Of a stretch of 28,772 bases of DNA, positions 2,931 to 28,772 are shown piece after piece (the first letter of the stretch is position 1; every line of letters begins with the position of its first letter). The position numbers and the translations under genes are program-made. The DNA is taken from positions 1 through 28,772 of the forward strand of contig JAGCJD010000174.1 of assembly GCA_017648425.1 (NCBI GenBank), read 5' to 3'. The notes below the pieces were generated by a model. It was not told where the DNA came from and did not search any database. It saw only the letters and a program-made list of their open reading frames with translations. Origin of the DNA: Clostridia bacterium (GTDB lineage: Bacteria; Bacillota; Clostridia; Oscillospirales; CAG-272).

Positions 2931-2954
2931 TGGCTGTTCTATCCTCACATCTTC

Positions 2955-2983
2955 ATTATACCACATTTTTCGACATCTGTCAA
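2955..2983 (-). promoter_or_regulatory. Outward-facing sigma-A promoter at the prophage left end
   Basis: TTGACA-gatgtcgaaaaatgtgg(17)-TATAAT with TGn extended -10 on the minus strand. Confidence 0.75.
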
Positions 2984-3724
2984 TATTTTTTGTGAAAATT
3001 TTTTCCAAAAATCGCAAAAAAATTCAAAAAACAATTTTTTTCGGGGAGTTTCTCGGGGGTTTTTGGGTAAAAGCTCATTGAAAATCAAGTAAAATTTCTC
3101 TTGAAAAAGAGAAAGAGCCACTGAGTTTTCGTGAAAAACACTTTGCTTTATCTTTCGTATTTCCGATATTTCCTCGGAAATACGCTCATGCTTTGAAAAT
3201 GCTGATATTTCGCCGCGTATCTCTCTCGCGATAAGTATTATATAATAATATATATAATATATAACGCATGCGCGCTCGTGTGTACGCGCTTACGCGCGCT
3301 CTCTCGCGCTCGCCGTGCGCTCGGGGGTGGCGGCGGAACGATCTTTTTTTCTGTCTTGGCTGAATTTGTGTGACCGAGTGAAAGACGATAGCGCTCCTGC
3401 GCCCTCAAAAACTGTCTGTAAGGCTAAAAAGGGGCAGGGGGTGCTGTCTTACCCTGCCCATATGCGTAAAGATTAAAATACAGCGTTTTTCAAAAGACAA
3501 TTTTTTCCACCTTTCGACAACACCGAGAGAGACCATTCCCCCCTTCGGGGGGTAAGGGGGGTCTCTCTCTGTCTTGTATATGTCTTGTAAAAGTTTTGTT
3601 TTGTTTCTGTATTGTTTCTGTTTTGTTTTGGGTTCAACCGATAGAGCTTTTTTTGTAAGATCCGGGAGCTCTTTCGGCGGTGATTTTATTTGCGTTATAA
3701 GTCGATTTATTCGTGCTTTATTTA

Positions 3725-5104
3725 TTACGCTTCGTTGAATGTAACATCAAAGCTTCCGTCCTTGTAAACGACTATCTTTTTGAGCGTTCGTCCCCAAAAT
3801 GCCTTCTTGCTTTCGGGGGTGAGCGAATTATACATCTGTTCAAAATCTTTGAGCTCTTTTATGTTTATGAACTCCTGCTCGCGTATCTCTTGTCTTTGCT
3901 TTGCTTCGTCAAGCTCCGCTTTGAGGGATAGATAATCTCTCTCGTATATCTCCTTTGGAATGAGATCGGAAAGGTACAGATCTTTGAGCTTTTCTATTTT
4001 TGCCATTATCTTTGAGGTGTCGGGCGCTCTTTTGGGCACGGACGCCTTTTTCATTTTTATTTCTATATTGTATTTTTTTGCCTCGGAAATAAGGTTTTCG
4101 ACAAGCCACGCTTCCAGCTTTTGCTGATTTATCTGCTTTTGCATTTCGCATTGGAGCATACTTCTCGCGGAACAGCGGTAATAGATTATAGTCTTTCCCT
4201 TAGTGCCGTCCTTTTTCTTGTTTGCGTAGCTGTATGTGCTCATTCTTCTTCCGCATTCTCCGCAGAACATAAGCCCTGTGAAAATATAGACATTCGAGGT
4301 CCTTGTCATTGTGCGCTGTCCTCGTGTTTCAAGCAGGGAAGCGGTAAGCTCAAAGGTCTTTTTGTCAATTATCGCGGGACACCAATTTTCAATTCCGTAA
4401 GCCTCGCCTATATACCATTTATTGGTGAGCATATGCTTCATGGATTTTGCGTCGATCGTTACGCCGTATTCGGTGAATATGTATCTTGCTGTTTCTTTCA
4501 TGGAGCGGCAGTCGATATACTTATCGAATGTGGCGCGAGCGATGTTTGCCCGCTGTTCGTCAATAACGGCGCGCTTGTTTTCTATTTTATATCCGAGAGG
4601 GGTGCTGCCGGATATAACATGTCCGTCCTTTACCATATTGCTGAAAACGAATTTTATCCTCTCGGAGGTGCGGTCGGACTCGTCCTGCGCTATCGCCAGC
4701 TTTATGTTGAGCGCAAGGCGACCATTGGCGCTTGTCGTGTCGTAATCCTCGTCCGTTGCCAGCCACTGTACCTTGTGCTTATCAAGTATTGCCTGAACCT
4801 CGTAATAGTCGGATACATTACGGAACCAACGGTCAAGCTTGACAAAAAGGACGACATCTATTTTGCCGTCACGCACATCTTGTATCATTCGCATAAATTC
4901 CGGGCGAGCCGTGTATTTCTTTCGCGCGGATATGCCCTCATCGGTATAGTGGTCCACAACGGTGAGGTCGTTCTCCTCGGCGTAACGGGAAAGGCGCTCC
5001 TTCTGAGCGTCAAGAGAAACGCCGTGCTGCGCCTGCTCCTCGGTGGAAACGCGGGAGTAAAGCGCCGCCCGTCTTATGCTGTCGTCAAATCGTTTTACCT
5101 TCAT
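3725..5104 (-). CDS. Large serine recombinase (phage integrase)
   Basis: 459 aa; YSRVSTEEQ catalytic Ser motif, DEGISA, KLDRWFRN, recombinase domain (PLGY), zinc ribbon CGECG...YYRC, coiled coil. Confidence 0.96.
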   Translation of the reverse strand: MKVKRFDDSIRRAALYSRVSTEEQAQHGVSLDAQKERLSRYAEENDLTVVDHYTDEGISARKKYTARPEFMRMIQDVRDGKIDVVLFVKLDRWFRNVSDYYEVQAILDKHKVQWLATDEDYDTTSANGRLALNIKLAIAQDESDRTSERIKFVFSNMVKDGHVISGSTPLGYKIENKRAVIDEQRANIARATFDKYIDCRSMKETARYIFTEYGVTIDAKSMKHMLTNKWYIGEAYGIENWCPAIIDKKTFELTASLLETRGQRTMTRTSNVYIFTGLMFCGECGRRMSTYSYANKKKDGTKGKTIIYYRCSARSMLQCEMQKQINQQKLEAWLVENLISEAKKYNIEIKMKKASVPKRAPDTSKIMAKIEKLKDLYLSDLIPKEIYERDYLSLKAELDEAKQRQEIREQEFINIKELKDFEQMYNSLTPESKKAFWGRTLKKIVVYKDGSFDVTFNEA

Positions 5105-5734: not shown

Positions 5735-6175
5735 TTATAGCAGTGTGTCGTCGGTTTCGGGAGCATTCTTTATGTCTTTCCAATCATTCTTGCTCATTTT
5801 TACTATTTCGTCCTGCCTTTTGTCAGCGGAGCTTGCCGCCGTGTAAATGCAAACATTGCCGTCTGCTTCAAGTCCGAGCAGACAAAGGACAGCGGGCTGC
5901 ATTTCGGGGTGCATACGGTAAGCGCTGAGTACTCTGAGCTCTATATCGGTAAGGTCGTTGCGCTTTATCTGGGGCTCGGTATCCGCGTTGTCGGCAAAAA
6001 AGTATTCGCGACTTACGCCAAAGTACTGCGCCAGCTTTTCAAGCGTGGTCTTTGAGGGGAGAGTGCCGTTCTTCCATTTAGTTATAGAGCCAGCGGAAAT
6101 GCCGAGCTCCTTTACTACCGCAGAGGGAGTTTTTTGATTTGCCTTGCAAAGCTCGTAAAGATTGTTCCAAAACAT
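5735..6175 (-). CDS. XRE/Cro-CI HTH prophage repressor (ImmR-like)
   Basis: Likely start MFWNNLYELC at 6175 (AAAGGA RBS); HTH TPSAVVKELGISAGSITKWKNGTLP...LEKLAQYFGVS. Confidence 0.88.
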   Translation of the reverse strand: MFWNNLYELCKANQKTPSAVVKELGISAGSITKWKNGTLPSKTTLEKLAQYFGVSREYFFADNADTEPQIKRNDLTDIELRVLSAYRMHPEMQPAVLCLLGLEADGNVCIYTAASSADKRQDEIVKMSKNDWKDIKNAPETDDTLL

Positions 6176-6223
6176 AGTGATATTTCCTTTCTTGCATGTT
6201 CTTCCGTAAATTTTATCAGTTTG

Positions 6224-6305
6224 TTTCACATATGGTGAAATAAATTATATATTTCACTGAAAATGAAAAATACATATTGACATTTCATTGAAAGTGAATT
6301 ATAAT
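6224..6305. promoter_or_regulatory. Lysis-lysogeny switch: three 17-bp operators and rightward promoter
   Basis: TTTCAC-atatg-GTGAAA (6224-6240), TTTCAC-tgaaa-ATGAAA (6252-6268), TTTCAT-tgaaa-GTGAAT (6283-6299); the third fills the spacer of TTGACA(6277-6282)-17-TATAAT(6300-6305). Confidence 0.85.
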
Positions 6306-6675: not shown

Positions 6676-6834
6676 ATGAAGGGTATGACGGCATCAATAA
6701 AGAACGAGCCGAACATGAATTACATAATGAAGGTGCTCTGCGAGCAGCTCTCCCGACAGGAGATAGGCTCGTACGAATATTCGTACAAATTGGAAAGAAA
6801 GGAGAATTGTTTAAAAAATGCAGAACAGGCGTAA
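6676..6834 (+). CDS. Small hypothetical phage protein (52 aa)
   Basis: Below track cutoff; GGGAGG RBS, MKGMTASIKNEPNMNYIMKVLCEQLSRQ..., overlaps the next start. Confidence 0.55.
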   Translation: MKGMTASIKNEPNMNYIMKVLCEQLSRQEIGSYEYSYKLERKENCLKNAEQA

Positions 6835-7138
6835 GCAAGAAAGACAGACACAGCTGACGCTCGAGCTTGGAAGCGGAGTACAGCTCTCAGAGGCTCAGCT
6901 TTGCAGTGTCGTGTCGCTTGTGGTGGGGCTTGAATACCGCAAGGAAAGGCACGGCGCGTGGGCGCTTGACCAAGAGCATTCGAGCAAAAAGTATTTAAGG
7001 TGGAGGTGCAGCGCCTGCGGACACTGGCAGTCGTCAAGGCGTAACGATAAGAGTGAGCAGATATTTTACATGAATTACTGTCCATTCTGTGGTTCGCAGA
7101 TGGACAAGCCCGCAAGGGAGAGGGCTGAGCAGATATGA
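6818..7138 (+). CDS. Phage zinc-ribbon protein
   Basis: RHGAW...RCSACG...NYCPFCGSQMD (two CxxC pairs); AAGGAG RBS. Confidence 0.8.
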   Translation: MQNRRKQERQTQLTLELGSGVQLSEAQLCSVVSLVVGLEYRKERHGAWALDQEHSSKKYLRWRCSACGHWQSSRRNDKSEQIFYMNYCPFCGSQMDKPARERAEQI

Positions 7139-16292: not shown

Positions 16293-16661
16293 ATGACAAT
16301 ACTTGAAGCCATAAGCAAAGCAGACGAATTCAGAAACAACAGAATAGAAGCGGCGGTAAAGATAGCGATGCTCTCGGAGCTGGACGGGCGGATATACGCC
16401 GAGGTAATAGAGGGAACGAACGCCTTTGAGGGATATAATGAAAGTACGCCAATGGACACGGAGCTTATCGTGCCGTATCCTTACGATGCCTTATATATAA
16501 GCTATTTGGAGTCGGAGATTTGCAGAATAAGCGGAGAAATGTCCAAATACGCTATCGCACGGAGCATATTTGCCGAAAAGTATGAATCGTTTAAGGCGTG
16601 GTATATCCGCTCCCACGAATACAACAAGCCAAACATAAAAATTCCTGTAAGGAGGTATTGA
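16293..16661 (+). CDS. Head-tail adaptor-like protein
   Basis: 122 aa, AGGAGG RBS, position after capsid, ELIVPYPYD.LY..YL motif. Confidence 0.65.
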   Translation: MTILEAISKADEFRNNRIEAAVKIAMLSELDGRIYAEVIEGTNAFEGYNESTPMDTELIVPYPYDALYISYLESEICRISGEMSKYAIARSIFAEKYESFKAWYIRSHEYNKPNIKIPVRRY

Positions 16662-16663
16662 GC

Positions 16664-18790
16664 ATGATATTGCCTGAGCTTCCCATACCAAACCAGACCA
16701 AGGAGATAATACAGACCTTTGGCGGATATAATCACAATATAAGAATAGCGGACAATGAATTTTTTAACATGAGGAATTTATCTGTTATCGGATATCCGAC
16801 ATTAAGTCCAAGGCAAAAGAGAGGGATAGTAAAGAGCCTTCCCGACTGTAATGGATTACTCTCAAAGGACAAGTTGGCGTATATAAGCGGCAATAAGCTT
16901 TACTATGGAGAACAAGAGTTCGCGCTCAACGAAGGCATAACAGAGGAGCGTCAGATAGTTTCAATGGGCGCTTATATCCTTGTGTTTCCTGACGAATATT
17001 ATGTAAACACAAAGGATACGACCGATCATGGAAGCATAAGCGGAGGGTATTACGAGTTAAATACAGAGAACGAGGATCTTTCGTTTTATTTATCAACGGT
17101 TGAGGGAAACGAGGTTCACCCCCTTTACATAACGAAAAAAGGTTCTGCGTCACAGAGCGACGAGGTTGCCGTATGGGAGCTTTTGCAAAGCTTAAAAAAC
17201 AATCGCAAAATATCCACGACAGATAACTGTTATGTTGCAATAAGGAGTGACGGTAACTCGCCTATCGAGGTAACGCTTCCGTTTGACAATACGAATGGCT
17301 CGAACAAGTCGAATTATGTATATATACAAGACCAATCGGTAGCCCAGATAAAGGAAAAAAATATGCAAGGGACAGTTTTTACGCCACTGAAAAGCGGTAT
17401 AACAACGGTCGAGGTAGGACTTGGCTCGGGAAGCGCGACATATTCACGGTATTATTACATAATCGTAAAGGACACGGCAGATCCCACCGATGGAGAATAT
17501 TGGCTTCAAACGGACGGAGATAGCGAGGTCGGTCAGCTCTATGTAGCATCAGGCGGAAGATGGGAGGCAATAAAAAGCTGTATAAAGGCAAAAAGCGGAA
17601 TGCCTTTTGCTAAGGAGGCGTTTGCAAGGCTGAAACAACAAAAAACTTGCAGACTGAGGATTTCAAGCGACAAAGAGGCTTTGCAATATATAACAAAGAA
17701 ATATTCGGAATTGAATGCCTTTGATCCTATAAGCTGTGGGGAAGACTATTTCTTGCTTGAAGGAAGCTTAAATAATTGCTCGTTTGTTGCAATGCCAAGC
17801 AACACCAAAATAGAACTAAGCTTAGATCTTCCCGAAATGGATTTTGTTATGGAAAGCGGAAACCGCTTGTGGGGCTGTAAATACGGGCTGAACAAGGAGG
17901 GGGATTTTTTGAACGAGATATATGCCTCCGAGCTTGGGAATTTCTTTTCGTGGTATTCATTCAAGGGCATATCCACCGATAGCTACGCGGCATCGGTAGG
18001 TACGGACGGAGTGTTTACCGGCGCGGTGAATTACAAAGGTAAGCCGATATTCTTTAAAGAGAATTGCACGCATTCCATATACGGCTCGTATCCCTCCAAT
18101 TTTCAAATAAGCACCGAAGCGGGTATTGGCTTGGAGGAAGGCTCGGCAAGGAGCTTGTGTATTGTCAACAACGCATTGTACTATAAGGCAACGGACGGTG
18201 TGTACAGATACGATGGCGCATCGTATGATAAGCTCTCATTTGCTCTCGGAGATGTTTCTTACAGCAATGCATCAGGGGGGAGCATTGACAATAAGTATTA
18301 TATAGCAATGACGAGCGAGGAGGGAAAAAGAGAGCTGTTCGTATATGATATATCCAAGGGCTTGTGGCACAAGGAGGACGAAGTACAAGCATATTACTTT
18401 GCCCGTCACAAAAACGACCTTTACTTTTACGACAACAGCTCTAAGTATTTGTATACGGTAAAGGCGTCAGAGGGAGAAGCGGAGAGCGATCCTATCACAT
18501 GGGAAGCGGAAACAGGGCCTATCGGCTACAACACGATAGATGCAAAATATCTTGACAAGATACAGCTCCGAATATCTCTGCCTGTCGGAAGCGCTGTCAG
18601 ATTTTTTATAGAATATGACACGGACGGATATTTTGAGTATTTTGGAAATATCACGGGAAAATCAAGTCAGGCGTTCACTCTGCCGTTGTTTCCGCGCAGA
18701 TGCGATCATTTCAGACTGAGACTCAACGGAGAGGGCGAGTGTAAGATATTCAGCCTTATAAAGGTCATAGAGGACGGAGGCGAGCTGTAA
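16664..18790 (+). CDS. Tail/stabilisation (nozzle-like, beta-propeller) protein of podovirus type
   Basis: Start at ATG 16664 after AAGGAGG; beta-rich with repeated Y..DG and WH..D motifs; C-terminal RRCDHFRLRLNGEG. Confidence 0.72.
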   Translation: MILPELPIPNQTKEIIQTFGGYNHNIRIADNEFFNMRNLSVIGYPTLSPRQKRGIVKSLPDCNGLLSKDKLAYISGNKLYYGEQEFALNEGITEERQIVSMGAYILVFPDEYYVNTKDTTDHGSISGGYYELNTENEDLSFYLSTVEGNEVHPLYITKKGSASQSDEVAVWELLQSLKNNRKISTTDNCYVAIRSDGNSPIEVTLPFDNTNGSNKSNYVYIQDQSVAQIKEKNMQGTVFTPLKSGITTVEVGLGSGSATYSRYYYIIVKDTADPTDGEYWLQTDGDSEVGQLYVASGGRWEAIKSCIKAKSGMPFAKEAFARLKQQKTCRLRISSDKEALQYITKKYSELNAFDPISCGEDYFLLEGSLNNCSFVAMPSNTKIELSLDLPEMDFVMESGNRLWGCKYGLNKEGDFLNEIYASELGNFFSWYSFKGISTDSYAASVGTDGVFTGAVNYKGKPIFFKENCTHSIYGSYPSNFQISTEAGIGLEEGSARSLCIVNNALYYKATDGVYRYDGASYDKLSFALGDVSYSNASGGSIDNKYYIAMTSEEGKRELFVYDISKGLWHKEDEVQAYYFARHKNDLYFYDNSSKYLYTVKASEGEAESDPITWEAETGPIGYNTIDAKYLDKIQLRISLPVGSAVRFFIEYDTDGYFEYFGNITGKSSQAFTLPLFPRRCDHFRLRLNGEGECKIFSLIKVIEDGGEL

Positions 18791-18800
18791 TGAGCATACC
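18741..18800 (+). repeat. attL core of nested element (60 bp)
   Basis: gtaagatattcagccttataaaggtcatagaggacggaggcgagctgtaatgagcatacc identical to 24093-24152. Confidence 0.95.
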
Positions 18801-18945
18801 GTTTACGGCAAGCATAAATCCCAAGGGGAAAAACACCGACGAGGTACAGCGCGACTTGATAAGGCAGTTGCAGATACAGAACAGAGAACTGAAAATTATC
18901 ATTGAGGATCTGTACAAGCAAATAAACAAAATCGGAGAGGGCTGA
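18790..18945 (+). CDS. 51-aa virion-module protein, element-borne allele
   Basis: MSIPFTASINPKGKNTDEVQRDLIRQLQIQNRELKIIIEDLYKQINKIGEG; 37/51 aa identical to 24142-24297. Confidence 0.85.
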   Translation: MSIPFTASINPKGKNTDEVQRDLIRQLQIQNRELKIIIEDLYKQINKIGEG

Positions 18946-18964
18946 AAGGCGATTTTTGACGTTT

Positions 18965-18992
18965 TACCCCTTATTTTACCCCTTATAGAATT
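18965..18992. repeat. Putative integrase arm-type sites (left copy)
   Basis: taccccttattttaccccttatagaatt, 27/28 identical to 23956-23983. Confidence 0.75.
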
Positions 18993-19063
18993 TTACCGGA
19001 TTGTTTTTAACCCCCGAAAAAAGGGTAAATTTTGACCGATTTTCGGGCGGTGATTTTGACAGC

Positions 19064-19095
19064 AAAAAAGAGAGGCTTTTTGACCTCTCTTTTTT
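19064..19095. terminator. Bidirectional terminator at element left end
   Basis: aaaaaagagagg-ctttttga-cctctctttttt. Confidence 0.8.
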
Positions 19096-19124
19096 GCCTT
19101 TCCGAACGTATTCGTACAGAGGGC

Positions 19125-20288
19125 TTACGCTTTCATTTTCTCGTAGTAATTTTGCAAACGGTCTGCGCTGTCCTTTTTCATCTTTTCGGACACGTGAGCG
19201 TAAACGTTAAGAGTGAACGCGGCTGTGGCGTGACCGAGCGCTTCCTGTACGGTTTTCGGATTGTCCCCTTCTTGCAAAGCTGTGACGGCGTATGTGTGGC
19301 GCAGATCGTGAAATCTGAAATCGGGACATCCTATTTTTGTGCACACTCTTTTGAAATATGTGTGGAGCATATTCTCGTTGATGTATTTTCCGTCAGCACG
19401 CGTGAATACGAGATTCCAATCGTTTTTCCACCCCAAGCCTACCGCCAAGTGGTTTTTAAATTGCTCTTGGCGAACTCTTTGCAAAATATCCATGACGAAC
19501 GGCGCAGGCGTAAGCGTTCGTGATTTGTTGCTTTTTGGTGTTGAAATATACGGTTGCTCTCCGCGTTGCAAAGTGGTTTGTAATTGTTGCTTGACCGTAA
19601 CAGTTCCGTTCTTGAAATCAACCGCGTCCCACGGCAGTCCCAGCACCTCGCCTCTGCGCATTCCTGTGAATAGAGTGACCAAGAATATGTCTTTGTACGG
19701 AGACGGAAGCGGCTCATCCTCAACGGCTTGCAGAAAGTTGCGAAGTTCTTCTTCCGTGAGCGGGTGCATTTCTTTTTTTTCTTTTGCGGGGAGCTTGCAA
19801 GCGCTTGACGGATTTACGCTTATGTATTTTAACTCTACTGCTTGTTCAAGGGAATAGTGGAGTGTTGCGTGACAGTGTCGTGTTGTTGTCGCTGATAACC
19901 TTTTATTGAGCTGATTGTAAAAGGCTTGTATGTGCGTCGGGGTGAGCGCTTGAAGCTTGATATAGCCTAACTGTGGCTTTATGTAGCGCTCTATATATGC
20001 TTTTTGATTTACGTAAGTACTGCGCTTCACGGTCTGCTTGTAGTATTCCTCTAACCAGATGTCCACCCACTGCCCGACGGTCAGCCTGCTCGGCTCAACG
20101 AACGTTCCCTCGTCTCCCGACTTCTGCGCTTGCCTCATTTGCTTCAAGACTTCCTTTTGCGTGTCGGCGTAAAAGGAACGTCGCTTGCCGGCTATCGTAC
20201 AGCGAGCTTCCCACCGACCGTCCTCACGTTGGCGGACGGAACCGCCGCCCTTTGCATTTCTCTTGTCCTGATGAATAGTGTCTGCCAT
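19125..20288 (-). CDS. Tyrosine recombinase/integrase (ICEBs1/Tn916-like)
   Basis: N-terminal RQREDGRWEAR arm-binding domain; catalytic TGMRRGE, FHDLRH, LGH, TLNVYAH. Confidence 0.96.
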   Translation of the reverse strand: MADTIHQDKRNAKGGGSVRQREDGRWEARCTIAGKRRSFYADTQKEVLKQMRQAQKSGDEGTFVEPSRLTVGQWVDIWLEEYYKQTVKRSTYVNQKAYIERYIKPQLGYIKLQALTPTHIQAFYNQLNKRLSATTTRHCHATLHYSLEQAVELKYISVNPSSACKLPAKEKKEMHPLTEEELRNFLQAVEDEPLPSPYKDIFLVTLFTGMRRGEVLGLPWDAVDFKNGTVTVKQQLQTTLQRGEQPYISTPKSNKSRTLTPAPFVMDILQRVRQEQFKNHLAVGLGWKNDWNLVFTRADGKYINENMLHTYFKRVCTKIGCPDFRFHDLRHTYAVTALQEGDNPKTVQEALGHATAAFTLNVYAHVSEKMKKDSADRLQNYYEKMKA

Positions 20289-20291
20289 TTC

Positions 20292-21038
20292 TTAAATCTC
20301 CTTTTCTGTTTGTGTGTTGAATGTTTTGTCGAGCTTGTCCATAAACCACTTTTCGTAGTATTCGCCTCTCTCACGCTCCGCATCGGCGCGCTCGGACGTG
20401 CGCTCGTTCGCGTCCTGTATAGCCCATAGGCGTATCGTTACGTAGTGATCGTCGTATTTGTACCCCTTGCTTTTGAGCTTCGCGGAGAAGTTTTCGATAA
20501 GAGTGTCGGCTTTGTCCCCAAACTGCTTTTTCAGATCCTCATGCTCCGCTTCGGTCAGATAGACGTTCTTAAATTCTCCGTATGCCTTTTTATCGGGAGA
20601 GGGCGTTCTCGCGCGTGTACGCGCATTTATACTCTCTCCCTCGTAGAGGGAAGAGTGTAAATAGTTATCTGTATTCTGTTTACCGTTATCTGTATTCTGT
20701 TTACCGTTATCTGTATTCTGTATTCCGTATTCTGTAGCTGACTTTTGCTGTGGCTCTGTTTCCTCTTGCTGTGCTTTGCTGTTTTTTGCCGTAGCAAAAC
20801 CGCCTTGCTGTCCTGCTCTGCGCCGAAGCTCCGAAATCTCCTCACCACGTTTGATTTGGTGGAACATTATGGAGACCACGACCCGGAGCGTACCGTCCAC
20901 GTTATCGATAGGGTTACTCCCGTGACGGTGGTAATCTGATATAGCCTTGACTACCTTCCATGCGTCTGCGCCGTCGAGCTGGTCAAGGTCGTCTATCCAA
21001 TCGTAGAACAGATAAAATGCTTTTTCGTTGTCCTTCAT
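20292..21038 (-). CDS. Replication initiator / replisome organiser (DUF6291-like N-terminus)
   Basis: KAFYLFYDW...; internal iteron-like 21-bp repeats; C-terminal YGEFKNVYLTEAE...YDDHYVTIRLWA. Confidence 0.78.
   Translation of the reverse strand: MKDNEKAFYLFYDWIDDLDQLDGADAWKVVKAISDYHRHGSNPIDNVDGTLRVVVSIMFHQIKRGEEISELRRRAGQQGGFATAKNSKAQQEETEPQQKSATEYGIQNTDNGKQNTDNGKQNTDNYLHSSLYEGESINARTRARTPSPDKKAYGEFKNVYLTEAEHEDLKKQFGDKADTLIENFSAKLKSKGYKYDDHYVTIRLWAIQDANERTSERADAERERGEYYEKWFMDKLDKTFNTQTEKEI
20664..20737. repeat. Iteron-like tandem repeats (putative origin) inside initiator gene
   Basis: gttatctgtattctgtttacc x2 plus one degenerate copy; core gtattctgt occurs five times. Confidence 0.8.
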
Positions 21039-21244
21039 ACCGCCGCTGCGCTTGCCTCCGCTTCAAGCCATTTGCAAAGACTATCGACGGGTATCACTAT
21101 GCGTCGCTCCGATACTCGGACGGCGGGGAAGCCCCTGCGCTTTATAAGCTCGTAAGCTACGGGTTTGGATACTCCAAGTACTTTTGCGAGTTCTGCAACG
21201 TCAAGCACGAGCTTGTCGGTTTGGGTAAGTATTGCTGTTGTCAT
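21035..21244 (-). CDS. Excisionase-like HTH (HTH_17 type)
   Basis: VLDVAELAKVLGVSKPVAYELIKRRGFPAVRVSERRIVIP...L.KWL. Confidence 0.88.
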   Translation of the reverse strand: MTTAILTQTDKLVLDVAELAKVLGVSKPVAYELIKRRGFPAVRVSERRIVIPVDSLCKWLEAEASAAAV

Positions 21245-21375
21245 TTGTTTATCCTCTCTTTCGTGTTTTTGATTTTGTGTGACAGCTCCTCGGCTGTCGT
21301 TGCGGTATTTACTGCCTCTGCCGTTTCCCTCAAGCGGACGGTGAATGCGAGAACGTAAGCAATCAGAGTCCTCAT
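21241..21375 (-). CDS. Small hypothetical protein (44 aa)
   Basis: MRTLIAYVLAFTVRLRETAE...; ATGA overlaps with both neighbours. Confidence 0.55.
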   Translation of the reverse strand: MRTLIAYVLAFTVRLRETAEAVNTATTAEELSHKIKNTKERINK

Positions 21376-21686
21376 TCAGTGCCTCTTTCCGGCTTTTCCA
21401 TCTGCGCCCCGCAGAATGGGCAGTAGTTCATGTAGAAGATCTTATCGGACATTCCGCCCTTGGTTGCGGACTGCCAGTGTTCGCACTCTGAACAGATCCA
21501 TCTGACGAATTTTTTGCTCTCGAAGCTCTCATCGGGAAGCCACACGCCGTGGCGCTCTTTTCTGTATTCCTCAGCTGCGAGTGTGTAAGCGAGTTTTTTT
21601 GCCCGGCTTTTGCTCAGCTCGGGTGCCTCAAGCAAAAATTCCGTAAGCTCTTTGGTGCGCTCTCGTAGTCTTTTATCGGTTATCAT
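21372..21686 (-). CDS. Zinc-ribbon protein, homologue of prophage 6818-7138
   Basis: 39/62 identical residues over the C-terminal region by manual alignment. Confidence 0.85.
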   Translation of the reverse strand: MITDKRLRERTKELTEFLLEAPELSKSRAKKLAYTLAAEEYRKERHGVWLPDESFESKKFVRWICSECEHWQSATKGGMSDKIFYMNYCPFCGAQMEKPERGTE

Positions 21687-21689
21687 GCT

Positions 21690-22082
21690 TCATTCCTCCG
21701 TGATTTTTGGATTAAGTATTGCCTGGGCGAAAATATCCGCCTGGCGTTCGACGTGCCGACCGTGTCTGATACGCTGAAGCTCAAGGTATCGCTCAAAGCG
21801 TTCGTGCTCCTCTCTGTGCTTTAGGAAGTAGTGCCCCAGCTCATGAGCCACGGTAAACCGCTTTTGAGAGTGCGTTCTCGTATCGTCGTATACGATTATG
21901 CTCTTATCGTTATGGCAAAATATCCTGCCGTACTCTGTTGGGCATAGCAATCGCACGTCGCTGTTTTTGTATACTTTTATGCCCTCGCCCCGGGCGAGTT
22001 CCAGAACGTCGAACGGTACCGTATCGATACCGTGCTCGCGCAGGACCGAGAGTGCATATTCGGGTATATCTTTGTTTCTCAC
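21690..22082 (-). CDS. ImmA/IrrE-family metallopeptidase (short form)
   Basis: RFTVAHELGH, ERQADIFA; shares EGIKV.KNS.V.LL with 5109-5708. Confidence 0.88.
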   Translation of the reverse strand: MRNKDIPEYALSVLREHGIDTVPFDVLELARGEGIKVYKNSDVRLLCPTEYGRIFCHNDKSIIVYDDTRTHSQKRFTVAHELGHYFLKHREEHERFERYLELQRIRHGRHVERQADIFAQAILNPKITEE

Positions 22083-22092
22083 GATGTGCCCC

Positions 22093-22290
22093 TCAATGCG
22101 TCATGTAGTAACGGTACGCCTCTGTCGCGGTCATATCGTCCCACGCCCATTTAAGGGCGCAGGTGAGCTTGTCAATGGTTGCTCTGTCTATCTGATCGTC
22201 GGGGTATTGCTCGTTCCATTCGTTCACTGCTCTCATGATATATCCCAACATTACGCAGTTCTGCGTTCCGTCCCAATTCTGTATTTCCAT
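22093..22290 (-). CDS. Hypothetical protein (65 aa)
   Basis: In operon, GGAG RBS. Confidence 0.65.
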   Translation of the reverse strand: MEIQNWDGTQNCVMLGYIMRAVNEWNEQYPDDQIDRATIDKLTCALKWAWDDMTATEAYRYYMTH

Positions 22291-22302
22291 GCCGTCTCCC
22301 CC

Positions 22303-22578
22303 TTACGCTATCGAGAAGCGACGTGTGGTCGTCGTCTTTGTGTACTGCTCTGCCAGCTTGGGCATAGCTTTCTTGAATGCCGTTGTGTCAAAGCGTGAGC
22401 CGTTGACGGTAGTCCATCTTACTTTGAACACGTCCACGTTAAGCTCTTCCGTGTTGCGCGCGGTCATTTCCGCCTTGATAGTGTCTTCGAGCGCGGCGAT
22501 CTCTGCTGCGATCTGCTCTGCAAATGCTTTAAGCTCTTTAAGCTCTCTTACTGTGTTTGTCATTTCGTTTGTACTCAT
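22303..22578 (-). CDS. Coiled-coil hypothetical protein resembling the C-terminal part of YqaJ-like proteins
   Basis: AAGGAG RBS; EIAALEDTIKAEM...RFDTTAFKKAMP.L..QY.KTT..RRF. Confidence 0.65.
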   Translation of the reverse strand: MSTNEMTNTVRELKELKAFAEQIAAEIAALEDTIKAEMTARNTEELNVDVFKVRWTTVNGSRFDTTAFKKAMPKLAEQYTKTTTTRRFSIA

Positions 22579-22772
22579 GTCGGTACTCCTTTTCCATAAA
22601 AAATTTTGTTTTTGATTTTCTTTTCCTGCGGAGCTTCGGGGTGAGTGGCGTTAAACATCTATGCCCCCGGCAATCTCACTCTCTCTTATCCACTCTCACT
22701 CTTACCTTGCTTTCTTGTTTTCGGCTTTCGCCTACTTCCGTCTGCCTTGCCGTGTTTCCGCAAAATTTACTC

Positions 22773-22900
22773 TTGACAAATCCGCCTTTTCGTGGTACAA
22801 TGTAGGAGCGAGAGAGGAAAGGCGAACGTCGAAACCTCTCTGCTCCGATTGAACTGGTCGCTCGGTGCTGTGGTAAGTGAGCCGAGCGACCTTGTTTTTT
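22773..22900 (+). ncRNA. Candidate ~95-nt small RNA with own promoter and terminator
   Basis: TTGACA(22773-22778)-17-TACAAT(22796-22801), hairpin ggagcgagagagg/cctctctgctcc, terminator ggtcgctcgg/ccgagcgacc plus T tract. Confidence 0.6.
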
Positions 22901-23054
22901 ACTTGCTTGCTATGTAGTCAAGCAGTTCGACGATTTGGCTGTCAGACCAACCGACGTGGTGGAGATACTCGATAAGCTTCTTCAGCGTGCTGTCGCTCAT
23001 CATCTCGGCATCAGTCCTTTCGTTTACGTTTTCGTGTATGTTCGCCTTATTCAT
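22899..23054 (-). CDS. Small hypothetical protein (51 aa), first gene of the element's leftward operon
   Basis: MNKANIHENVNERTDAEMMSDSTLKKLIEYLHHVGWSDSQIVELLDYIASK; purine-rich RBS; alternative start at 23003. Confidence 0.55.
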   Translation of the reverse strand: MNKANIHENVNERTDAEMMSDSTLKKLIEYLHHVGWSDSQIVELLDYIASK

Positions 23055-23125
23055 TCCCTTGTCCCCCCTTTCGTTCGTTTGTTCGTGATAACGCTCGATT
23101 ACACTCGTTTGTTTATCACACCTCT

Positions 23126-23254
23126 ATTATAGCATATCGTACCCGATATGTCAAGAGACTTTTTGGAAAATATCGGGTACAATATTTCACAAACATTTTT
23201 GAAAATTTTTGTGCAATTTGTATATTGTCCCCGATATGTGGTTTGTGGTATAAT
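23126..23254. promoter_or_regulatory. Divergent promoters with three 16-bp operators (element switch)
   Basis: Leftward TTGACA-17-TATAAT (23154-23126); rightward extended -10 TGGTATAAT (23246-23254); operators atatcgtacccgatat 23134-23149, atatcgggtacaatat 23170-23185, atattgtccccgatat 23222-23237. Confidence 0.85.
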
Positions 23255-23279
23255 ATTTTCGATAGAGAGGGGGGATATT

Positions 23280-23486
23280 ATGCCAGCATCAAAAGCAAAC
23301 CAAAAAGCGGTCGCAAAATACATGAAAGCAAACTATGACGATATTAAGGTCAGAGCCCCAAAGGGAAAGCGAGACCTGATACAAGCTCATGCAAAGTTAC
23401 AGAATGAAAGTACAAATGCGTTTATCAACCGCGCGATAGACGAGACTATCGAGAGGGACAATGTAAAAGAAAAGGGAGAGGGCTGA
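23280..23486 (+). CDS. Ribbon-helix-helix (Arc-like) repressor
   Basis: Start MPASKANQKAVAKY at 23280; YDDIKVRAPKGKRDLIQAHA...STNAFINRAIDE. Confidence 0.75.
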   Translation: MPASKANQKAVAKYMKANYDDIKVRAPKGKRDLIQAHAKLQNESTNAFINRAIDETIERDNVKEKGEG

Positions 23487-23955
23487 CAGCTCTCTCCGTT
23501 TTTGGTTGGCGAGTAAAAGGTGTTTTAATGCCCCTCACGCGCGCGAGGATTGCGTGTACGCGCGTTAAATAGGTAGGGTGGACTACTACACTCTCGCGCA
23601 TACGCAGGACAGAGGGGTTTTTGAGGGTATCGTGTGCGTACGTGCGTATATGGGTGTGTGTACATCCGTAACGAGAGGGCGAAAGAGGGCACACCGGGAA
23701 CGTTCGGAACGTGAGCTGCGCCATCGATACCGATTTATGCCCGGCATATGGCGACCGTCGCGCCGATGGAATGTGAGGTAACTTTCCGAGAGATCTTCGA
23801 GAGATCTTTTTTGCGTTCAATATCTCGGTACGGAGATGGAAAAGTGAACCCCGAAAAGCACGTCGCGATCGAGAGGGATTTTTGCCCCGAAAAATACCCC
23901 GAAAAAGAGGGCAAAAAAGGGTGAAAAACGGGCGTGATTTTTTACCCCCGATTTC

Positions 23956-23983
23956 TACCCCTTATTTTACCCCTTACAGAATT
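23956..23983. repeat. Putative integrase arm-type sites (right copy)
   Basis: taccccttattttaccccttacagaatt. Confidence 0.75.
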
Positions 23984-24092
23984 GCATTAGATTGATTTTA
24001 ACGCCTTTTCGGCGGTTTTTGAAAATCGAAACGCTTTATTTGGATTGAAAAGATTGCCTTAAATTGGTCTTGATTGAACGTGGGAATTGAAA

Positions 24093-24152
24093 GTAAGATA
24101 TTCAGCCTTATAAAGGTCATAGAGGACGGAGGCGAGCTGTAATGAGCATACC
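24093..24152 (+). repeat. attR core of nested element (60 bp)
   Basis: Identical to 18741-18800. Confidence 0.95.
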
Positions 24153-24297
24153 CTTTACCGCAGAAATCAATCCAAAAGGAATAACAGCCGATGAGGTTCA
24201 GAGAGATTTGATACGACAGCTTAGAACGCAGAACAAGGAGCTTGCAGTAATTATAAAGGATCTATATGAGCAGATAGAAAAGATAAAGGGAGGGTAA
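24142..24297 (+). CDS. 51-aa virion-module protein, probable native phage allele
   Basis: MSIPFTAEINPKGITADEVQRDLIRQLRTQNKELAVIIKDLYEQIEKIKGG; followed by phage terminator and late promoter. Confidence 0.85.
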   Translation: MSIPFTAEINPKGITADEVQRDLIRQLRTQNKELAVIIKDLYEQIEKIKGG

Positions 24298-24321
24298 TGG
24301 TGCGCCATTACCCTCCCTTTT
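24285..24321 (+). terminator. Rho-independent terminator
   Basis: 16-bp perfect stem aaagggagggtaatgg-tgcg-ccattaccctcccttt. Confidence 0.8.
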
Positions 24322-24367: not shown

Positions 24368-24398
24368 ATAGTAAAACACAAAAGAAAGGGGCTTGAAT

Positions 24399-25289
24399 AT
24401 GGGCTACAAATATCTGCGCGGACAAAGCTATCAAAGCAGAAACAAGGACAAAATAGAAAAACTGACAAAGGAATATACGGATAGGAAATTTAATTACGAT
24501 CCCGACACTGATGCGGCTTATCAGGAGTATGCAAGAATGATGAAGGAAAGCGGTCAAAGAGCTATGGAGGATACAGTGGGAAAGGCATCATCTCTTACGG
24601 GTGGATATGCCAACTCGTATGCGAGCACGGTTGGACAGCAGACTTATAACGATTACATGAAGGAGGCGGCTGCCGCGCATGTCGATTATTATGATAGAGC
24701 GCTTGCTCGTTTTACGCAAGAGGGAAGCGTATTGCAGGATAGGATAAATAGTCTTAAAGCGCAGGAGAGCAGTGACAGAGCGGCGTGGGAGGAGGATTAT
24801 CTTGCGGATCTTGAAAAAATGACGATTACAAACGATATTGATGGCCTTGCTTCAATACATGGCGTGACAACAGATGAGTATCAAAGATATCTTGACAATG
24901 AAGCAAAGAGATCGCTTGTCGCTCCTACACAAGAGATTATTGACAAAGCGGTGTCAGAGTATATGAGAAAAGGATATTTTGAAAAGGAGGTCGCAGACGA
25001 AAGCGAGCTTATTGAGAATATAATCGAGAAATATGTTCAAATGGGATATGATCCCGATGCCCTTACAACGATGCTTGTCGAGGCAAGGAGCGCATACGAA
25101 TATGTTAAGGATCGAGATTGGACAAAAGTTTCGGGCAAAGGAAAAAGCGCGCGCTTCCAAGACCAATTCGGAAACTTGTTCTTTTATGACGAGCTGGAAA
25201 ATTGGACTAAATCTCAAAGCGGAGAGGAAGAGTGGAATATACTCAAAAATAAGCTCAAAGGTATCAAAAAAGGCTCCCAGGAGGATTAA
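24399..25289 (+). CDS. Probable internal virion / DNA-ejection protein
   Basis: Likely start ATG 24399; FNYDPDTDAAYQEY...AMEDT.G.AS.LTGGYANSYA.TVGQQ.YN.YM, helical; position after tail gene. Confidence 0.7.
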   Translation: MGYKYLRGQSYQSRNKDKIEKLTKEYTDRKFNYDPDTDAAYQEYARMMKESGQRAMEDTVGKASSLTGGYANSYASTVGQQTYNDYMKEAAAAHVDYYDRALARFTQEGSVLQDRINSLKAQESSDRAAWEEDYLADLEKMTITNDIDGLASIHGVTTDEYQRYLDNEAKRSLVAPTQEIIDKAVSEYMRKGYFEKEVADESELIENIIEKYVQMGYDPDALTTMLVEARSAYEYVKDRDWTKVSGKGKSARFQDQFGNLFFYDELENWTKSQSGEEEWNILKNKLKGIKKGSQED

Positions 25290-25292
25290 AAA

Positions 25293-28200
25293 ATGGATAA
25301 GGAAACTGCAAAAAGACTTTCTCGGCGTTCAACAGAGCAAGCGCTTGCCAAAAGAGCTCAAAAGGCGGCAAGGCTGGAACAAGCAAAGCTTGAAAAGCAA
25401 ATAAATGAGTGGGAGCTGAACGAAGCCGAAAAAAAACGCTTGGAAGGCTACGACATAAATGCAGCAGAGGCAGAGCTTACAAGGATTACCAACAGCCCCG
25501 ATTATTGGGCGAACATAATAGGGGAGAATACGGCGTTTGATCAAGCTGAGGCGTTGCGCTCGGATATAGATAAGGCAAAGAAAATACAGGAAAGAGCAAA
25601 GGTTTATGACACGGCGTATAACGCCAAGAATGAGTTGCTCAACACCCGAATTGTTGACAACAAGACAAGGATAGAAGAAAATTCAATAATCGACAATATC
25701 ATAAAGAATACCGATAAAGCGTCCCTTGACAGCTATGTTATTCATAACGGAGCGCTTCCCGAAAGCATTGATGCGGATCTTGAAGATATCCGTCAGGAAA
25801 TAATGAACGAAATGTTTTCCAAAAAGGCTTATGAATATGGCAAGGAATTTCCTGTTATCGGAACGGTTGCCAGCGTTGCTTCAAACTTAATGGGCGGCGC
25901 TTTGGCGTATAGCACGATTTCAAAAGACGGCAGAAAATTAAAGGTGAAGAGAAATACTTTATCCGATATTGCAAGTAATCTTCGGGCGGGAGCTTCCTCT
26001 GACATGAGCGATACGGGAGAGTTCCTTTACAATACGGCAGTATCTATGACAGAGTCGGTGCTTGCCGCCCTTATGTCGGGTAGCGGAGGAATGACCTTGC
26101 TCGGAATGTCCGCAGGAACGCAGACGGCAAACGATGTTCTGTCAAGAGGGGGCACAAGCGAGCAAGCGTTAGTGGGCGGAATTGCCGCAGGAGTTTTTGA
26201 GGCTTTTTTTGAAAAGTTTTCTATTGGCGCGTTAAAGTCAATGCAGCTTGACGAAATTACAACCTCGTGGAAGGGCTTTATGAAAAATTTGGGCAAGCAA
26301 ACGCTTACAAATGCTACCGAGGAGGGCGCGACCGAGATAGCTAATACCGTGTTTGATACAATCGCCCTCGGAGATATATCAAATTGGTCGCTTATGATAA
26401 ACGAATATGTAAATCAGGGCATGACTTTGGAGCAAGCAAGAAAAAAGGCGGCGAGCGCGTTTGGTATGCAGACGATTGAGGCTATGGCGTCAGGCGCAAT
26501 CATGGGCTCTGCGTTCGGTCTTGGCGGAGCTGCTGTCGGAGGAATTAAAAGAGCTAAGAACGGCAAAGCCATTATAAACGAAAGCACAAAAGCAACGCTT
26601 GATGATTTGATAGCGGCAGGAGAGGAAATATTCGTTGGCGACGAATACAAGAAAGAGCGCGAGCTTTTAAATGCTATAAAGAAAAATAAGAGCAAGAACG
26701 ATCTTGCTCAAAGGAACAGAGTTGCAAAGCTTGACGAGATAATAACAAAAATCGCGCAGGAGAAAGCAAAAAAAGCTCCTTCATGGGAGGGGCAAAAAAA
26801 GAATATTGTAAACGATGCGCTTGATGATTTGTCGGGAACTCTGCGTACGGCGCGCTCAGAGGCTAAAAACGCAAGGATAGGCAAGGACATAACCTATACC
26901 GATATGCCGCGTATAGTTGATTTTAAGGGAAGCAGTGGCGATGCTGTAATTATAATGCGCTCAAACGGCACGGTGGCAAAGCTTTCCGATATGTCATTTG
27001 AGGACGGCTCGCTGCTTGAAGCATACTTTCTTGCTACAAAAACAGGCTCGGTGGAGAACGCGAACAGGTTTATCGAGCAATACAGATTGTTTAACAAAGG
27101 AATATCCATTGAGCCTTTTTGGTTAGCGTGGATGGGCGTGCAGAACTACGGACAGACAGTAAATTCCGAGAATGCTCTTGACAACGCCCTCAAACGCTAT
27201 AAAAAATATGGCGTTCCCGAAACGGCATTAATGGCGGCTTTTCTGTCGGGCAGAAATTTACGCAAGAGCGCATCGGAAAGCGCGAAAGCGGCGCAACGAA
27301 AATATGAAAAGGCGTGGAAAGAAGCAGGTGGCAAGCTGAGGGACGCAAGGTTTGACGATAGCGCCATAAATGTCAGCAGTCTTACCGAGGACCAAAAGGA
27401 ATATTTGTGCTTCTTAAAAGCATTTTCACGAGTGTTGGGCGCAAATATTGAGGTGTTTGCTTCCGAAAAAGGAAGCAGACGAGAAAACGGCTCTTACAGT
27501 CGAACTACGAACACCTTGCGTATTGATATTAATGCAGGTATTTCAAATGAAGCAAATTATGAGGCGACAAGGAGCTGTATTATAAATACGCTTTCTCATG
27601 AAACGGTGCACAATATGCGAGAGGTAGCGCCCGAGGAGTATGAGGCGCTGAGAGATTTTGTAGTAGAGCTTTTGCAGGAGGACGAGCATTACGATTTTGA
27701 CAAAGCAATAGAAACGGAAATTGAAAGAGCGGCGCAAAATAAAAAAGGCCTCACAAGAGAGGACGCCGTTGAGGAAATAGTGGCGCGTGCATGTGAGAAC
27801 TGTCTTGGCTCATCGGAAACGCTGAAAGACCTTTTGACAGCGCTTTACATTGAGGATAAAAGGGCGGATAACAGCTTTGTAAGAGCTGTGCGAGCGTTTT
27901 TGACAAGGCTTAAAAGGTTCTTTGAAAACATATCAAAGCAGAGGGCAAAGACGCAAGAGGCAGATATAATCGCTGGAAAGGGAAAAAATATAATCTCTGA
28001 AATACAAAAGCGCTTTGATACGGCTCTCCTTGCTATGCGTAAGGGTAATACCGAGAGAAACGGAATAACAAATAAAGATGCCGCGCCGAGTGTAGGGGCT
28101 GATGCCGACAAGCAGAATAGTGATGTCAAATATCAAATGCGCGAAGAAAATTCAAAGGATACTCTTTACATTTACAAGGAAAAGGAGTATAATGATTTTG

Positions 28201-28772
28201 GTTGGGCGGAAGCCAATGGCTTTTTGAGTGCGGGGGAGAACGCTGACTACCTGGCAAAATTTGCAATGCTGAAAGCTCGGAAGGTGAGCTTCCCAAAGAC
28301 CAAACGCAGCGAGTATATGATAGCGGTCAGCGACATTTACGATTACGAATCGGAGGGCGTTGAAAATGTTATCGTTTATGCCAAGGGGACTATCGAGCAC
28401 CCAATTGTTACAAAGGTCATTAGGATAGAGATATTTGAGGAAACAGAAAAACTTGACAAGAAAAGGAGAGAGTTTTATGATATTGGACGGAGAGGCTTAC
28501 AGCCGAAGATTGGAGAGCTTTGCAGATTCTACTATGGAGCTGACGGAAGATCTTATGGCGTATACAAAAGAGATAGCCTTCAAAATGCTGGATCTGACGG
28601 CGGACGACAGTCTGACGGAGGAGCAGTTGGTGGAAAAGCTGCTCGAGCTGAAGGAATTGGCAGATCAGGCGGAGATATAATATATTATCACGATGTTGAT
28701 GATGTAAAAATAAATTCCGAAAGTTCCTTTGACATTACCGCAAATGAGGTTGAGACGATACGGAGCATAGGC
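25293..28772 (+). CDS. Giant polyvalent virion protein (partial, at least 1160 aa) with MPTase-like zinc metallopeptidase domain
   Basis: My translation finds no stop from ATG 25293 to the window end (absent from the track for that reason); Gly/Ala-rich hydrophobic segment, then RENGSY...LRIDINA...LSHETVH (27597-27611)...EEIVARACE, a KYQMR linker and a further globular domain. Confidence 0.85.
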   Translation, partial: MDKETAKRLSRRSTEQALAKRAQKAARLEQAKLEKQINEWELNEAEKKRLEGYDINAAEAELTRITNSPDYWANIIGENTAFDQAEALRSDIDKAKKIQERAKVYDTAYNAKNELLNTRIVDNKTRIEENSIIDNIIKNTDKASLDSYVIHNGALPESIDADLEDIRQEIMNEMFSKKAYEYGKEFPVIGTVASVASNLMGGALAYSTISKDGRKLKVKRNTLSDIASNLRAGASSDMSDTGEFLYNTAVSMTESVLAALMSGSGGMTLLGMSAGTQTANDVLSRGGTSEQALVGGIAAGVFEAFFEKFSIGALKSMQLDEITTSWKGFMKNLGKQTLTNATEEGATEIANTVFDTIALGDISNWSLMINEYVNQGMTLEQARKKAASAFGMQTIEAMASGAIMGSAFGLGGAAVGGIKRAKNGKAIINESTKATLDDLIAAGEEIFVGDEYKKERELLNAIKKNKSKNDLAQRNRVAKLDEIITKIAQEKAKKAPSWEGQKKNIVNDALDDLSGTLRTARSEAKNARIGKDITYTDMPRIVDFKGSSGDAVIIMRSNGTVAKLSDMSFEDGSLLEAYFLATKTGSVENANRFIEQYRLFNKGISIEPFWLAWMGVQNYGQTVNSENALDNALKRYKKYGVPETALMAAFLSGRNLRKSASESAKAAQRKYEKAWKEAGGKLRDARFDDSAINVSSLTEDQKEYLCFLKAFSRVLGANIEVFASEKGSRRENGSYSRTTNTLRIDINAGISNEANYEATRSCIINTLSHETVHNMREVAPEEYEALRDFVVELLQEDEHYDFDKAIETEIERAAQNKKGLTREDAVEEIVARACENCLGSSETLKDLLTALYIEDKRADNSFVRAVRAFLTRLKRFFENISKQRAKTQEADIIAGKGKNIISEIQKRFDTALLAMRKGNTERNGITNKDAAPSVGADADKQNSDVKYQMREENSKDTLYIYKEKEYNDFGWAEANGFLSAGENADYLAKFAMLKARKVSFPKTKRSEYMIAVSDIYDYESEGVENVIVYAKGTIEHPIVTKVIRIEIFEETEKLDKKRREFYDIGRRGLQPKIGELCRFYYGADGRSYGVYKRDSLQNAGSDGGRQSDGGAVGGKAARAEGIGRSGGDIIYYHDVDDVKINSESSFDITANEVETIRSIG
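28477..28680 (+). CDS. Nested out-of-frame 67-aa acidic helical protein (candidate immunity protein)
   Basis: AGGAGA RBS 7 nt before ATG 28477; +1 frame inside the giant ORF; MILDGEAYSRRLESFADSTMELTEDLMAYTKEIAFKMLDL...LVEKLLELKELADQAEI. Confidence 0.6.
   Translation: MILDGEAYSRRLESFADSTMELTEDLMAYTKEIAFKMLDLTADDSLTEEQLVEKLLELKELADQAEI

Follow-up and report, generated by a model that had tools for sequence, protein, structure and literature searches.

Helper-embedded phage-inducible chromosomal islands (HE-PICIs), founded on Eco567.11capE and described by Tommasini, Mageeney and Williams in 2023 (PMC10111431), are Gram-negative islands of ~11 kb that lie within the late genes of lambdoid prophages, at 14 sites served by one integrase clade, and that disrupt their target gene while carrying no replacement sequence (PMC10111431). 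The DNA analysed here, called the window throughout, is the whole 28.8-kb contig JAGCJD010000174.1 (28,772 nucleotides) of a metagenome-assembled genome (MAG; 1.37 Mb, 76% complete) of a Clostridia bacterium, and the public runs that hold this DNA are animal gut metagenomes. From about position 3700 to its end the contig is occupied by a prophage, inside which a discrete insertion has been made at an identity block of 60 bp where a virion gene meets a gene encoding a 51-aa protein. This insertion is probably a small integrative, self-replicating element housed in a temperate phage genome, that is, a helper-embedded mini-satellite. An earlier, sequence-only reading of the locus had set such a satellite against the rule that satellites usually use host chromosomal sites, a statement that omits the published helper-embedded islands (PMC10111431). 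Since these have been published, the lifestyle is not unprecedented; its non-disruptive version is.

The element resembles HE-PICIs in carrying an integrase, an AlpA/Xis-type protein and a replication module of its own, in its location inside a prophage late-gene region (between a 708-aa gene and the 298-aa and giant virion genes, with terminase, portal and capsid genes present in the same prophage), and in belonging to one integrase clade that has repeatedly moved to new phage-gene sites. Nonetheless, HE-PICIs cut into late genes at identity blocks of about 10 bp, whereas the window element lies at a gene 3' end with a block of 60 bp and provides a substitute 51-aa gene, its relatives supplying portal or giant-gene 3' ends. 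Nor is it, as HE-PICIs are, co-oriented with the late operon: its integrase and main operon are on the minus strand and the phage late genes on the plus strand, the element facing against the operon from behind a terminator of its own. HE-PICIs often hold captured capsid or other late genes, of which the window element has none; it measures 5.35 kb against ~11 kb, comes from a Clostridia MAG and a phage with a P22-type portal, has a putative DUF6291 initiator instead of a primase, and belongs to an integrase lineage found beside tRNA-Ser genes, as judged from Bacillota MAG relatives located at tRNA or phage genes. The element is like an HE-PICI in where it lives, without being a member of that family, and it would extend the satellite-inside-helper lifestyle beyond enterobacteria, to a Clostridial, half-sized and gene-sparing form; full-text literature searches brought up no such elements from Gram-positive bacteria. 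The one earlier description of helper-embedded satellites concerns enterobacteria, in which a late gene is broken and excision is needed before the helper can be built. In gut Clostridia the same lifestyle would have arisen independently and in the opposite style, with the target repaired, and a half-sized element of this kind could ride inside the helper genome indefinitely.

PICIs of Gram-positive bacteria span 12-15 kb. [quoted passage not shown] Of the Gram-positive PICI module, the element has int, an HTH_17 protein, the DUF6291 protein with iterons and a ribbon-helix-helix (RHH) regulator, the regulator not being of the CI/Stl type and the initiator not being a primase-helicase. PICIs and PICMIs differ from it in integrating at host chromosomal sites, and PICIs also in carrying packaging-hijack genes, whereas no packaging-interference gene (terS, ppi, cpm, capsid) was found among the ORFs of the window element by PHROG matches. 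According to their description (PMC10803314), PICMIs are similar in their very small gene content and in lacking capsid-remodelling genes, and differ in being Vibrionaceae elements that use virulent helpers.

The insertion is delimited by an exact 60-bp direct repeat, with copies at 18741-18800 (attL) and 24093-24152 (attR) spaced 5352 bp apart, in agreement with the earlier description of a perfect repeat laid over a stop/start junction. The repeat takes in the final 47 nt of the target virion gene, the TAA stop of that gene and 11 nt from the start of the 51-aa gene. Outside this core the two copies are 77% identical over the entire 51-aa gene (192 nt), two intact 51-aa genes are present with 73% amino acid identity between them, and a faint resemblance to the virion-gene end persists in the 40 nt upstream of the right core. 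The target gene (16598-18790, plus strand) encodes 730 aa from a GTG start, or 708 aa from the called start at 16664. It had been labelled a tail gene, a name that is not retained, since the sole match of its product is to PHROG 511, 'internal virion protein' (7e-67), and a PDB sequence search gave nothing usable and no PDB relative; blastn of the target region against the phage GenBank collection and single-protein scans of IMG/VR with the 708-aa protein likewise returned no match.

The left 51-aa gene (18790-18945, plus strand) is chimeric, its first 11 nt deriving from the core and the remainder being an element-borne replacement allele, while the native phage gene (24142-24297, plus strand) is displaced 5.35 kb from its operon and ends in a terminator hairpin at 24285-24320. 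As read from these alignments, the attachment region of the element is a captured, diverged copy of the phage stretch formed by the virion-gene end and the 51-aa gene. No phage reading frame is lost on integration because the element brings its own 51-aa allele; the insertion is non-disruptive, as had been proposed, every phage frame being intact with the allele of the element substituted. The operon that results from integration is composed of the virion gene, the element's 51-aa allele and the element's terminator. The latter, previously placed at 19064-19095, corresponds to a perfect 14-bp hairpin with flanking A/T runs at 19062-19097, downstream of both int and the substitute 51-aa gene, for which it is likely to act as a bidirectional terminator. 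Equivalent hairpins lie 3' of int in L170, L171 and L189 (L-numbers denote comparison loci or contigs from other samples or MAGs). Two other elements of the earlier description fared less well. The site had been placed at the end of a transcription unit, and the insertion actually precedes the last gene of that unit, the native 51-aa gene and its terminator lying downstream; the late promoter proposed at 24334 gave no match in a sigma-70 scan, although the stretch is conserved in L009.

The empty site whose existence would be expected was found in that same locus. L009, from another sample, holds a related phage that is collinear with the window phage (80-97% protein identity gene by gene) and displays the order 708aa-51aa-296aa-1170aa with no insert, its 708-aa protein being 88% identical to that of the window. 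Its nucleotides track the left flank of the window up to the core and the right flank beyond the core, which is an attB arrangement. The 51-aa protein of L009 is 90% identical to the right copy and 71% identical to the left one; the right copy is therefore the phage's own, and the left copy past the core belongs to the element. The attL junction, together with identical proteins that include the 708-aa one, appears in assemblies of three other samples. The copy of the element in sample L006 has two iteron units against three in the window and an initiator 7 aa shorter. At the same junction in L008 (3244-4250) the integrase is called as two pieces, one of 205 aa and one of 106 aa, whose matching parts are separated by a gap, and it may be a broken or variant copy.

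Regarding gene content, the assignment of an integrase, an Xis, an initiator with iterons and a private repressor to the element was borne out by Pfam and PHROG matches, except that the regulator, a putative repressor, is of the RHH and not of the XRE type. The tyrosine integrase (19125-20288, minus strand, 387 aa) matches Pfam Phage_integrase PF00589 (2.6e-28), PF14659 and PHROG 1 (8e-76), and exhibits the features of lambda-type enzymes, namely the catalytic R-K-H-R-H-Y set, a SAM-like domain at the N-terminus and arm sites that recur to either side of the core. Residues R211, K252, H327, R330, H353 and Y363 are invariant across 35 homologues. Arm-type repeat blocks occur near the integrase (18962-19014, with 2 x ACCCCTTA at 18962-18985) and at the distal end (23953-24005, with 2 x ACCCCTTA at 23953-23976), so placed that the doublets lie inward of the cores, by ~160 bp on the left and by ~90 bp on the right. 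The motif is present at both ends of relatives, the tRNA-Ser elements L013 and L014 included, and its doublets are probably arm-type integrase sites; in IMG/VR it gave one match, at an unrelated tRNA-Pro locus.

Adjacent to int lies the gene of a DUF6291, replisome-organizer-like protein (20292-21038, minus strand; Pfam DUF6291 7e-07, PHROG 13246 2e-08), a putative replication initiator for which a PDB sequence search gave nothing usable and whose family, DUF6291, is named in no paper retrieved by full-text literature searches. Three 21-bp iterons inside this gene (20664-20736) form a putative origin, and tandem repeats are also contained in the DUF6291 genes of the relatives L013 and L014. 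The variation in iteron number by exactly one 21-bp unit, together with these in-gene repeats, fits an origin located inside the initiator gene. Next to the initiator gene is that of a 69-aa HTH_17 protein of the AlpA/Xis type (21035-21244, minus strand; Pfam 1.9e-12; PHROG 66, 'excisionase and transcriptional regulator').

Control of the element appears to be centred on a divergent promoter/operator region at 23126-23254. A perfect TTGACA-17-TATAAT promoter points leftward (23154-23126) and overlaps one of three copies of a 16-18-bp palindrome (23134-23151, 23170-23185 and 23222-23239), while promoter-like sites point right toward a 68-aa gene (23280-23486, plus strand) that ends in a terminator at 23475-23497. 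The predicted structure of the 68-aa protein (pLDDT, the predicted local distance difference test, 85.5) gave, as its best 20 Foldseek matches, RHH proteins exclusively (Arc, AmrZ, TacA, CopG), with template-modelling scores by target of 0.8-0.87 and probabilities of 0.9-0.99, though with E-values >0.1; weak profile matches to Arc and AmrZ were also obtained (Arc E 0.02-0.03). Its 17 homologues occupy the same position in related elements, and the palindromes found at the same place in these relatives differ in sequence, as expected of repressor-operator pairs. Considering this together with the modelled RHH fold, the Arc-like 68-aa protein can be read as the putative repressor of the element.

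The leftward operon begins with a 51-aa gene (22899-23054, minus strand) that is conserved in L183, L186, L189 and L194, and continues on the same strand with conserved genes of 91 aa (22303-22578, PHROG 6244) and 65 aa (22093-22290). Next comes a short ImmA/IrrE-type metalloprotease of 130 aa (21690-22082, minus strand; Pfam Peptidase_M78 1.7e-10), whose HExxH motif is HELGH at residue 80 and which has no XRE partner within the element; it is 37% identical to the ImmA of the phage and is devoid of the C-terminal ~60 aa. A 104-aa zinc-ribbon protein (21372-21686, minus strand) is a paralogue of the product of phage early gene 6818-7138 (47% amino acid identity), and a 44-aa open reading frame (ORF; 21241-21375, minus strand) has 79% identity in L171 and 62% in L183. 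The zinc-ribbon protein of the L171 element is 79% identical to that of the window element, over the part seen. It may be hypothesized that the ImmA and zinc-ribbon proteins act on the helper. Capsid, portal, terminase, tail and packaging PHROGs have no match in any ORF of the element, in line with the earlier claim that it lacks capsid and terminase genes. PADLOC returned generic M78 (CapP/RmrA) and HTH matches with no defence system, and Rfam a single sub-threshold microRNA match in the element, taken as chance. A near-consensus promoter (11/12 matches) is seen at 22773-22801 on the plus strand, antisense within the leftward operon region; the same segment, proposed as a candidate small RNA, has no Rfam match.

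Relatives of the element place it in a wider context. The sites used by the integrase clade had been named as a check, and the outcome favours the earlier reading: the nearest clade is consistently in or next to phage genes, the wider family lying by host tRNA genes. In this wider family (40-58% identity, Bacillota MAGs) a tRNA gene is located 70-130 bp downstream of int on the opposite strand, and it is tRNA-Ser in all of the closest members. On the other hand, every element with the gene order of the window and a readable flank adjoins phage genes. In L171, L172 and L173 the element follows the TerL-69aa-portal genes of a related phage. Between the arm repeats and the portal gene of L171 (3323-3433) there is also a 37-aa segment with 49% identity to the C-terminal end of the phage serine recombinase, which may have been left behind by a target that this element used earlier. 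In L193 a phage-type serine recombinase, represented by residues 308-444, adjoins the integrase end of the element, and in L183 the element comes after a phage tyrosine integrase and DUF6514.

L189 is a 5,454-bp contig whose identical 119-bp ends define a 5,335-bp unit with the full gene set, and it includes a 140-codon fragment, 67% identical to portal residues 516-645, that is contiguous only once the contig is circularised. It is probably a circular form carrying a captured portal 3' end in its attP, as far as can be judged from the arrangement of its ends. An overlap of 119 bp is also one of the default k steps of MEGAHIT, and a repeat-bounded integrated copy would be compatible with the same contig.

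Giant virion genes are targeted by a further set. In L186, L187 and L188 a 4-kb relative is bounded on one side by the 3' end of a gene for a 2817-aa PHROG 22978 protein and on the other by a DUF6514-89aa-serine recombinase module; a diverged duplicate of the final ~38 codons of the giant gene follows the element. In L186 the element is co-oriented with the late genes, and the late genes, element, recombinase and early genes are joined on one 39-kb contig that begins at the giant-gene start; such an order is that of an unintegrated phage genome, which suggests that L186 is a free phage genome carrying the element and that the element stays when the phage is free. These giant-gene-targeting relatives bear, instead of the ImmA/zinc-ribbon block, an HTH_26 gene and a short S24 (LexA-like) peptidase gene (L186 8737-9776), predicted from these families to be a different route to a switch linked to SOS or to the repressor. 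L194 presents the same position in a prophage that is integrated, running from a host ATPase fragment through HTH_3, DUF6514 and the element to the giant gene, with 128-bp perfect repeats that contain the 3' end of the giant gene. DUF6514 genes are found at the recombinase end of three phages (L183 6445-6744, L186 12535-12777 and L194 6042-6314), two with serine recombinases and one with a tyrosine integrase, and an embedded element adjoins each of them.

In a maximum-likelihood tree of 77 integrases, from which near-duplicate loci of the same contigs were left out, the 6 phage-embedded rows group with 2 rows that have the same architecture and unread flanks in a single clade (100/99), nested in a clade otherwise made of tRNA-Ser-adjacent integrases (100/100). 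The elements at tRNA-Ser genes (L011-L021, Oscillospiraceae/Eubacteriales MAGs; 4.6-7.7 kb) share with the window element an integrase identity of 53-58%, an arm motif of 2 x TAAGGGGTA at both ends, HTH_17, DUF6291 with repeats inside its gene, the 91-aa protein of PHROG 6244 and a regulator of the RHH type divergent from it. They differ in residing in host chromosomes, in ordinary chromosomal contexts, with 24-39-bp cores that are the tRNA-Ser 3' end, and in having a CI/XRE-type repressor upstream of int as well as an Xis-initiator(-IstB) module that is divergent. Window-type elements are, on the contrary, without an XRE repressor, have the small ORFs down to int in one operon, and carry ImmA and zinc-ribbon genes related to phage early genes. 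Within the literature searched, the small tRNA-Ser-associated elements themselves seem not to have been described. Among the 120 best integrase matches in a collection of 5.8 billion proteins, 16 lie closer to the embedded clade than they do to the tRNA-Ser one, and that collection has only 20 DUF6291 relatives, which together indicate that the group is rare. DUF6291 searches of 400 species genomes of the same order gave distant matches only, and the profile had no match in IMG/VR and just a 1.4-kb fragment in JGI metagenomes. Taken as a natural series, one integrase clade with at least three or four unrelated phage targets and an ancestral tRNA-Ser site could serve for studying how the site specificity of tyrosine integrases changes through capture of target DNA. 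Phage genomes from gut metagenomes may also hold autonomous passengers annotated as phage lysogeny modules, and satellite searches restricted to host sites would miss this phage-embedded class.

As a mechanism, the integrase would bind the arm repeats at both ends and, with the HTH_17 protein, excise and re-insert the element, and the DUF6291 protein would fire the iteron origin within its own gene. The Arc-like RHH protein would keep the leftward operon, comprising the small genes, ImmA, zinc-ribbon, Xis, initiator and integrase, shut from the three palindromic operators. While integrated, the element would ride as a passenger in the phage genome through its replication, packaging and lysogeny, and after derepression a 5.3-kb circle would move to another phage copy bearing the site; more speculatively, the orphan ImmA would act on the XRE repressor of the helper. 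A broader scenario is advanced more tentatively than the helper-embedded nature of the element itself. In it, a Clostridial mini-satellite lineage left host tRNA-Ser sites and now lives permanently in phage genomes, capturing into its attP the 3' ends of phage genes (portal, internal virion protein, giant injected protein, recombinase), so that the cut made by each insertion is repaired by it, travelling in the packaged genome of the helper, and touching the lysis-lysogeny switch of the latter through ImmA and the zinc-ribbon protein.

These proposals have to be compared with other ways of explaining the locus. The embedded position might serve only to sense helper induction, after which a classical satellite would excise, replicate from its own origin and be packaged separately as multimers in helper capsids; this is unlikely, although it and travel as a passenger are not mutually exclusive. 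Possession of an integrase, an Xis-like protein, an initiator and iterons would suit such a cycle, as would the probable circularity of L189 and the behaviour of the HE-PICI 11capE, which excises late, after composite replication (PMC10111431); a tentative further hint is the unitig depth in run X1, about 6.5 over the element against 9 over its flanks. Separate packaging is disfavoured by the absence of terS and of a capsid-remodelling gene, and by the lack of any DNA common to the element and the phage packaging region, the zinc-ribbon gene being all that is shared outside att. In addition, the sparing of all helper genes and the addition of a private terminator fit long-term residence, and in the L186 and L187 contigs the late genes are linked to the element and the lysogeny module as they would be in an unintegrated phage genome. 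That the element is instead the fossil of a single past integration, now an immobile cassette domesticated by this phage lineage, is very improbable: no excision product is seen in unitigs and all contigs of this phage strain carry the element, yet the two 60-bp repeats have not diverged, every ORF is intact, the integrase has its conserved catalytic R, K, H, R, H and Y, a perfect consensus promoter with operators is in place and iteron number differs among samples, while relatives occupy several phage sites, one with 128-bp perfect repeats and another being probably circular. Least credible of all is an off-target landing or an assembly chimera, in which a tRNA-targeting island would have been joined to phage DNA by chance. 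The wider integrase family does adjoin tRNA genes, the tRNA-Ser(gct) site of the host is on the same contig, and the window is metagenome-assembled; nonetheless, both junctions are on one contig, the attL junction recurs in three independent assemblies, which excludes a chimera, the sequence copied, in diverged form, in the attachment region is the phage target and not a tRNA, and the embedded integrases are a clade of their own with several phage targets.

Several observations weigh against the interpretation of the element as a mobile, helper-embedded mini-satellite, or at least soften it. No excision joint, empty-site joint or circle of this element was detected in four public runs, searched as low-depth Logan unitigs that break at the 60-bp repeat; as unitigs end at this repeat by construction, that search neither supports nor refutes excision. 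All four contigs with the identical 708-aa protein carry the element, and no empty copy of the exact strain was seen. Neither a pac site nor terS nor a capsid-size gene was found in the element, which leaves separate packaging unexplained. The identity blocks of the window, L189, L194 and the tRNA-Ser elements are not more alike than shuffled controls, and so reveal no shared core motif. Regarding the relatives, these were gathered through the initiator protein of the element, the sample not being independent of architecture while the genomic contexts are independent observations; the L171, L183 and L193 loci lack their far ends, so that their sites are placed approximately, and half of the L186 contig was read.

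Outside the element, the prophage begins with a large serine recombinase gene (3725-5104, minus strand), then the phage ImmA (5109-5708) and XRE repressor (5735-6229) genes. After these lysogeny genes come early genes, small and large terminase, P22-type portal, Prp, scaffold and major capsid protein genes, followed by those for the 708/730-aa protein, the 51-aa protein, the 298-aa protein and a giant protein that runs off the contig. The last two (24393-28772, plus strand), the giant one being a virion protein of >1160 aa matching PHROG 22978, are collinear with L009. Host DNA occupies positions 1-3081 and includes a tRNA-Ser(gct) gene (1052-1143, minus strand) and a truncated P-type ATPase gene. 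A second integrase at the left edge of the window, by the tRNA-Ser gene, was considered as a candidate and rejected. This tRNA gene holds, unoccupied, the exact 24-nt core used by the tRNA-Ser relatives (as in L011). Beside it are two copies of a ~110-bp stretch (about 700-810 and 905-1020), along with a partial tRNA-3'-like remnant at 821-838, which may together be the scar of a past integration. The L194 phage, of the same type and from a different MAG, also abuts a truncated homologue of the P-type cation ATPase (54% amino acid identity; L194 4447-5361, window 1951-3725), and this gene seems, from the two junctions, to be a conserved attB of these serine-recombinase phages.

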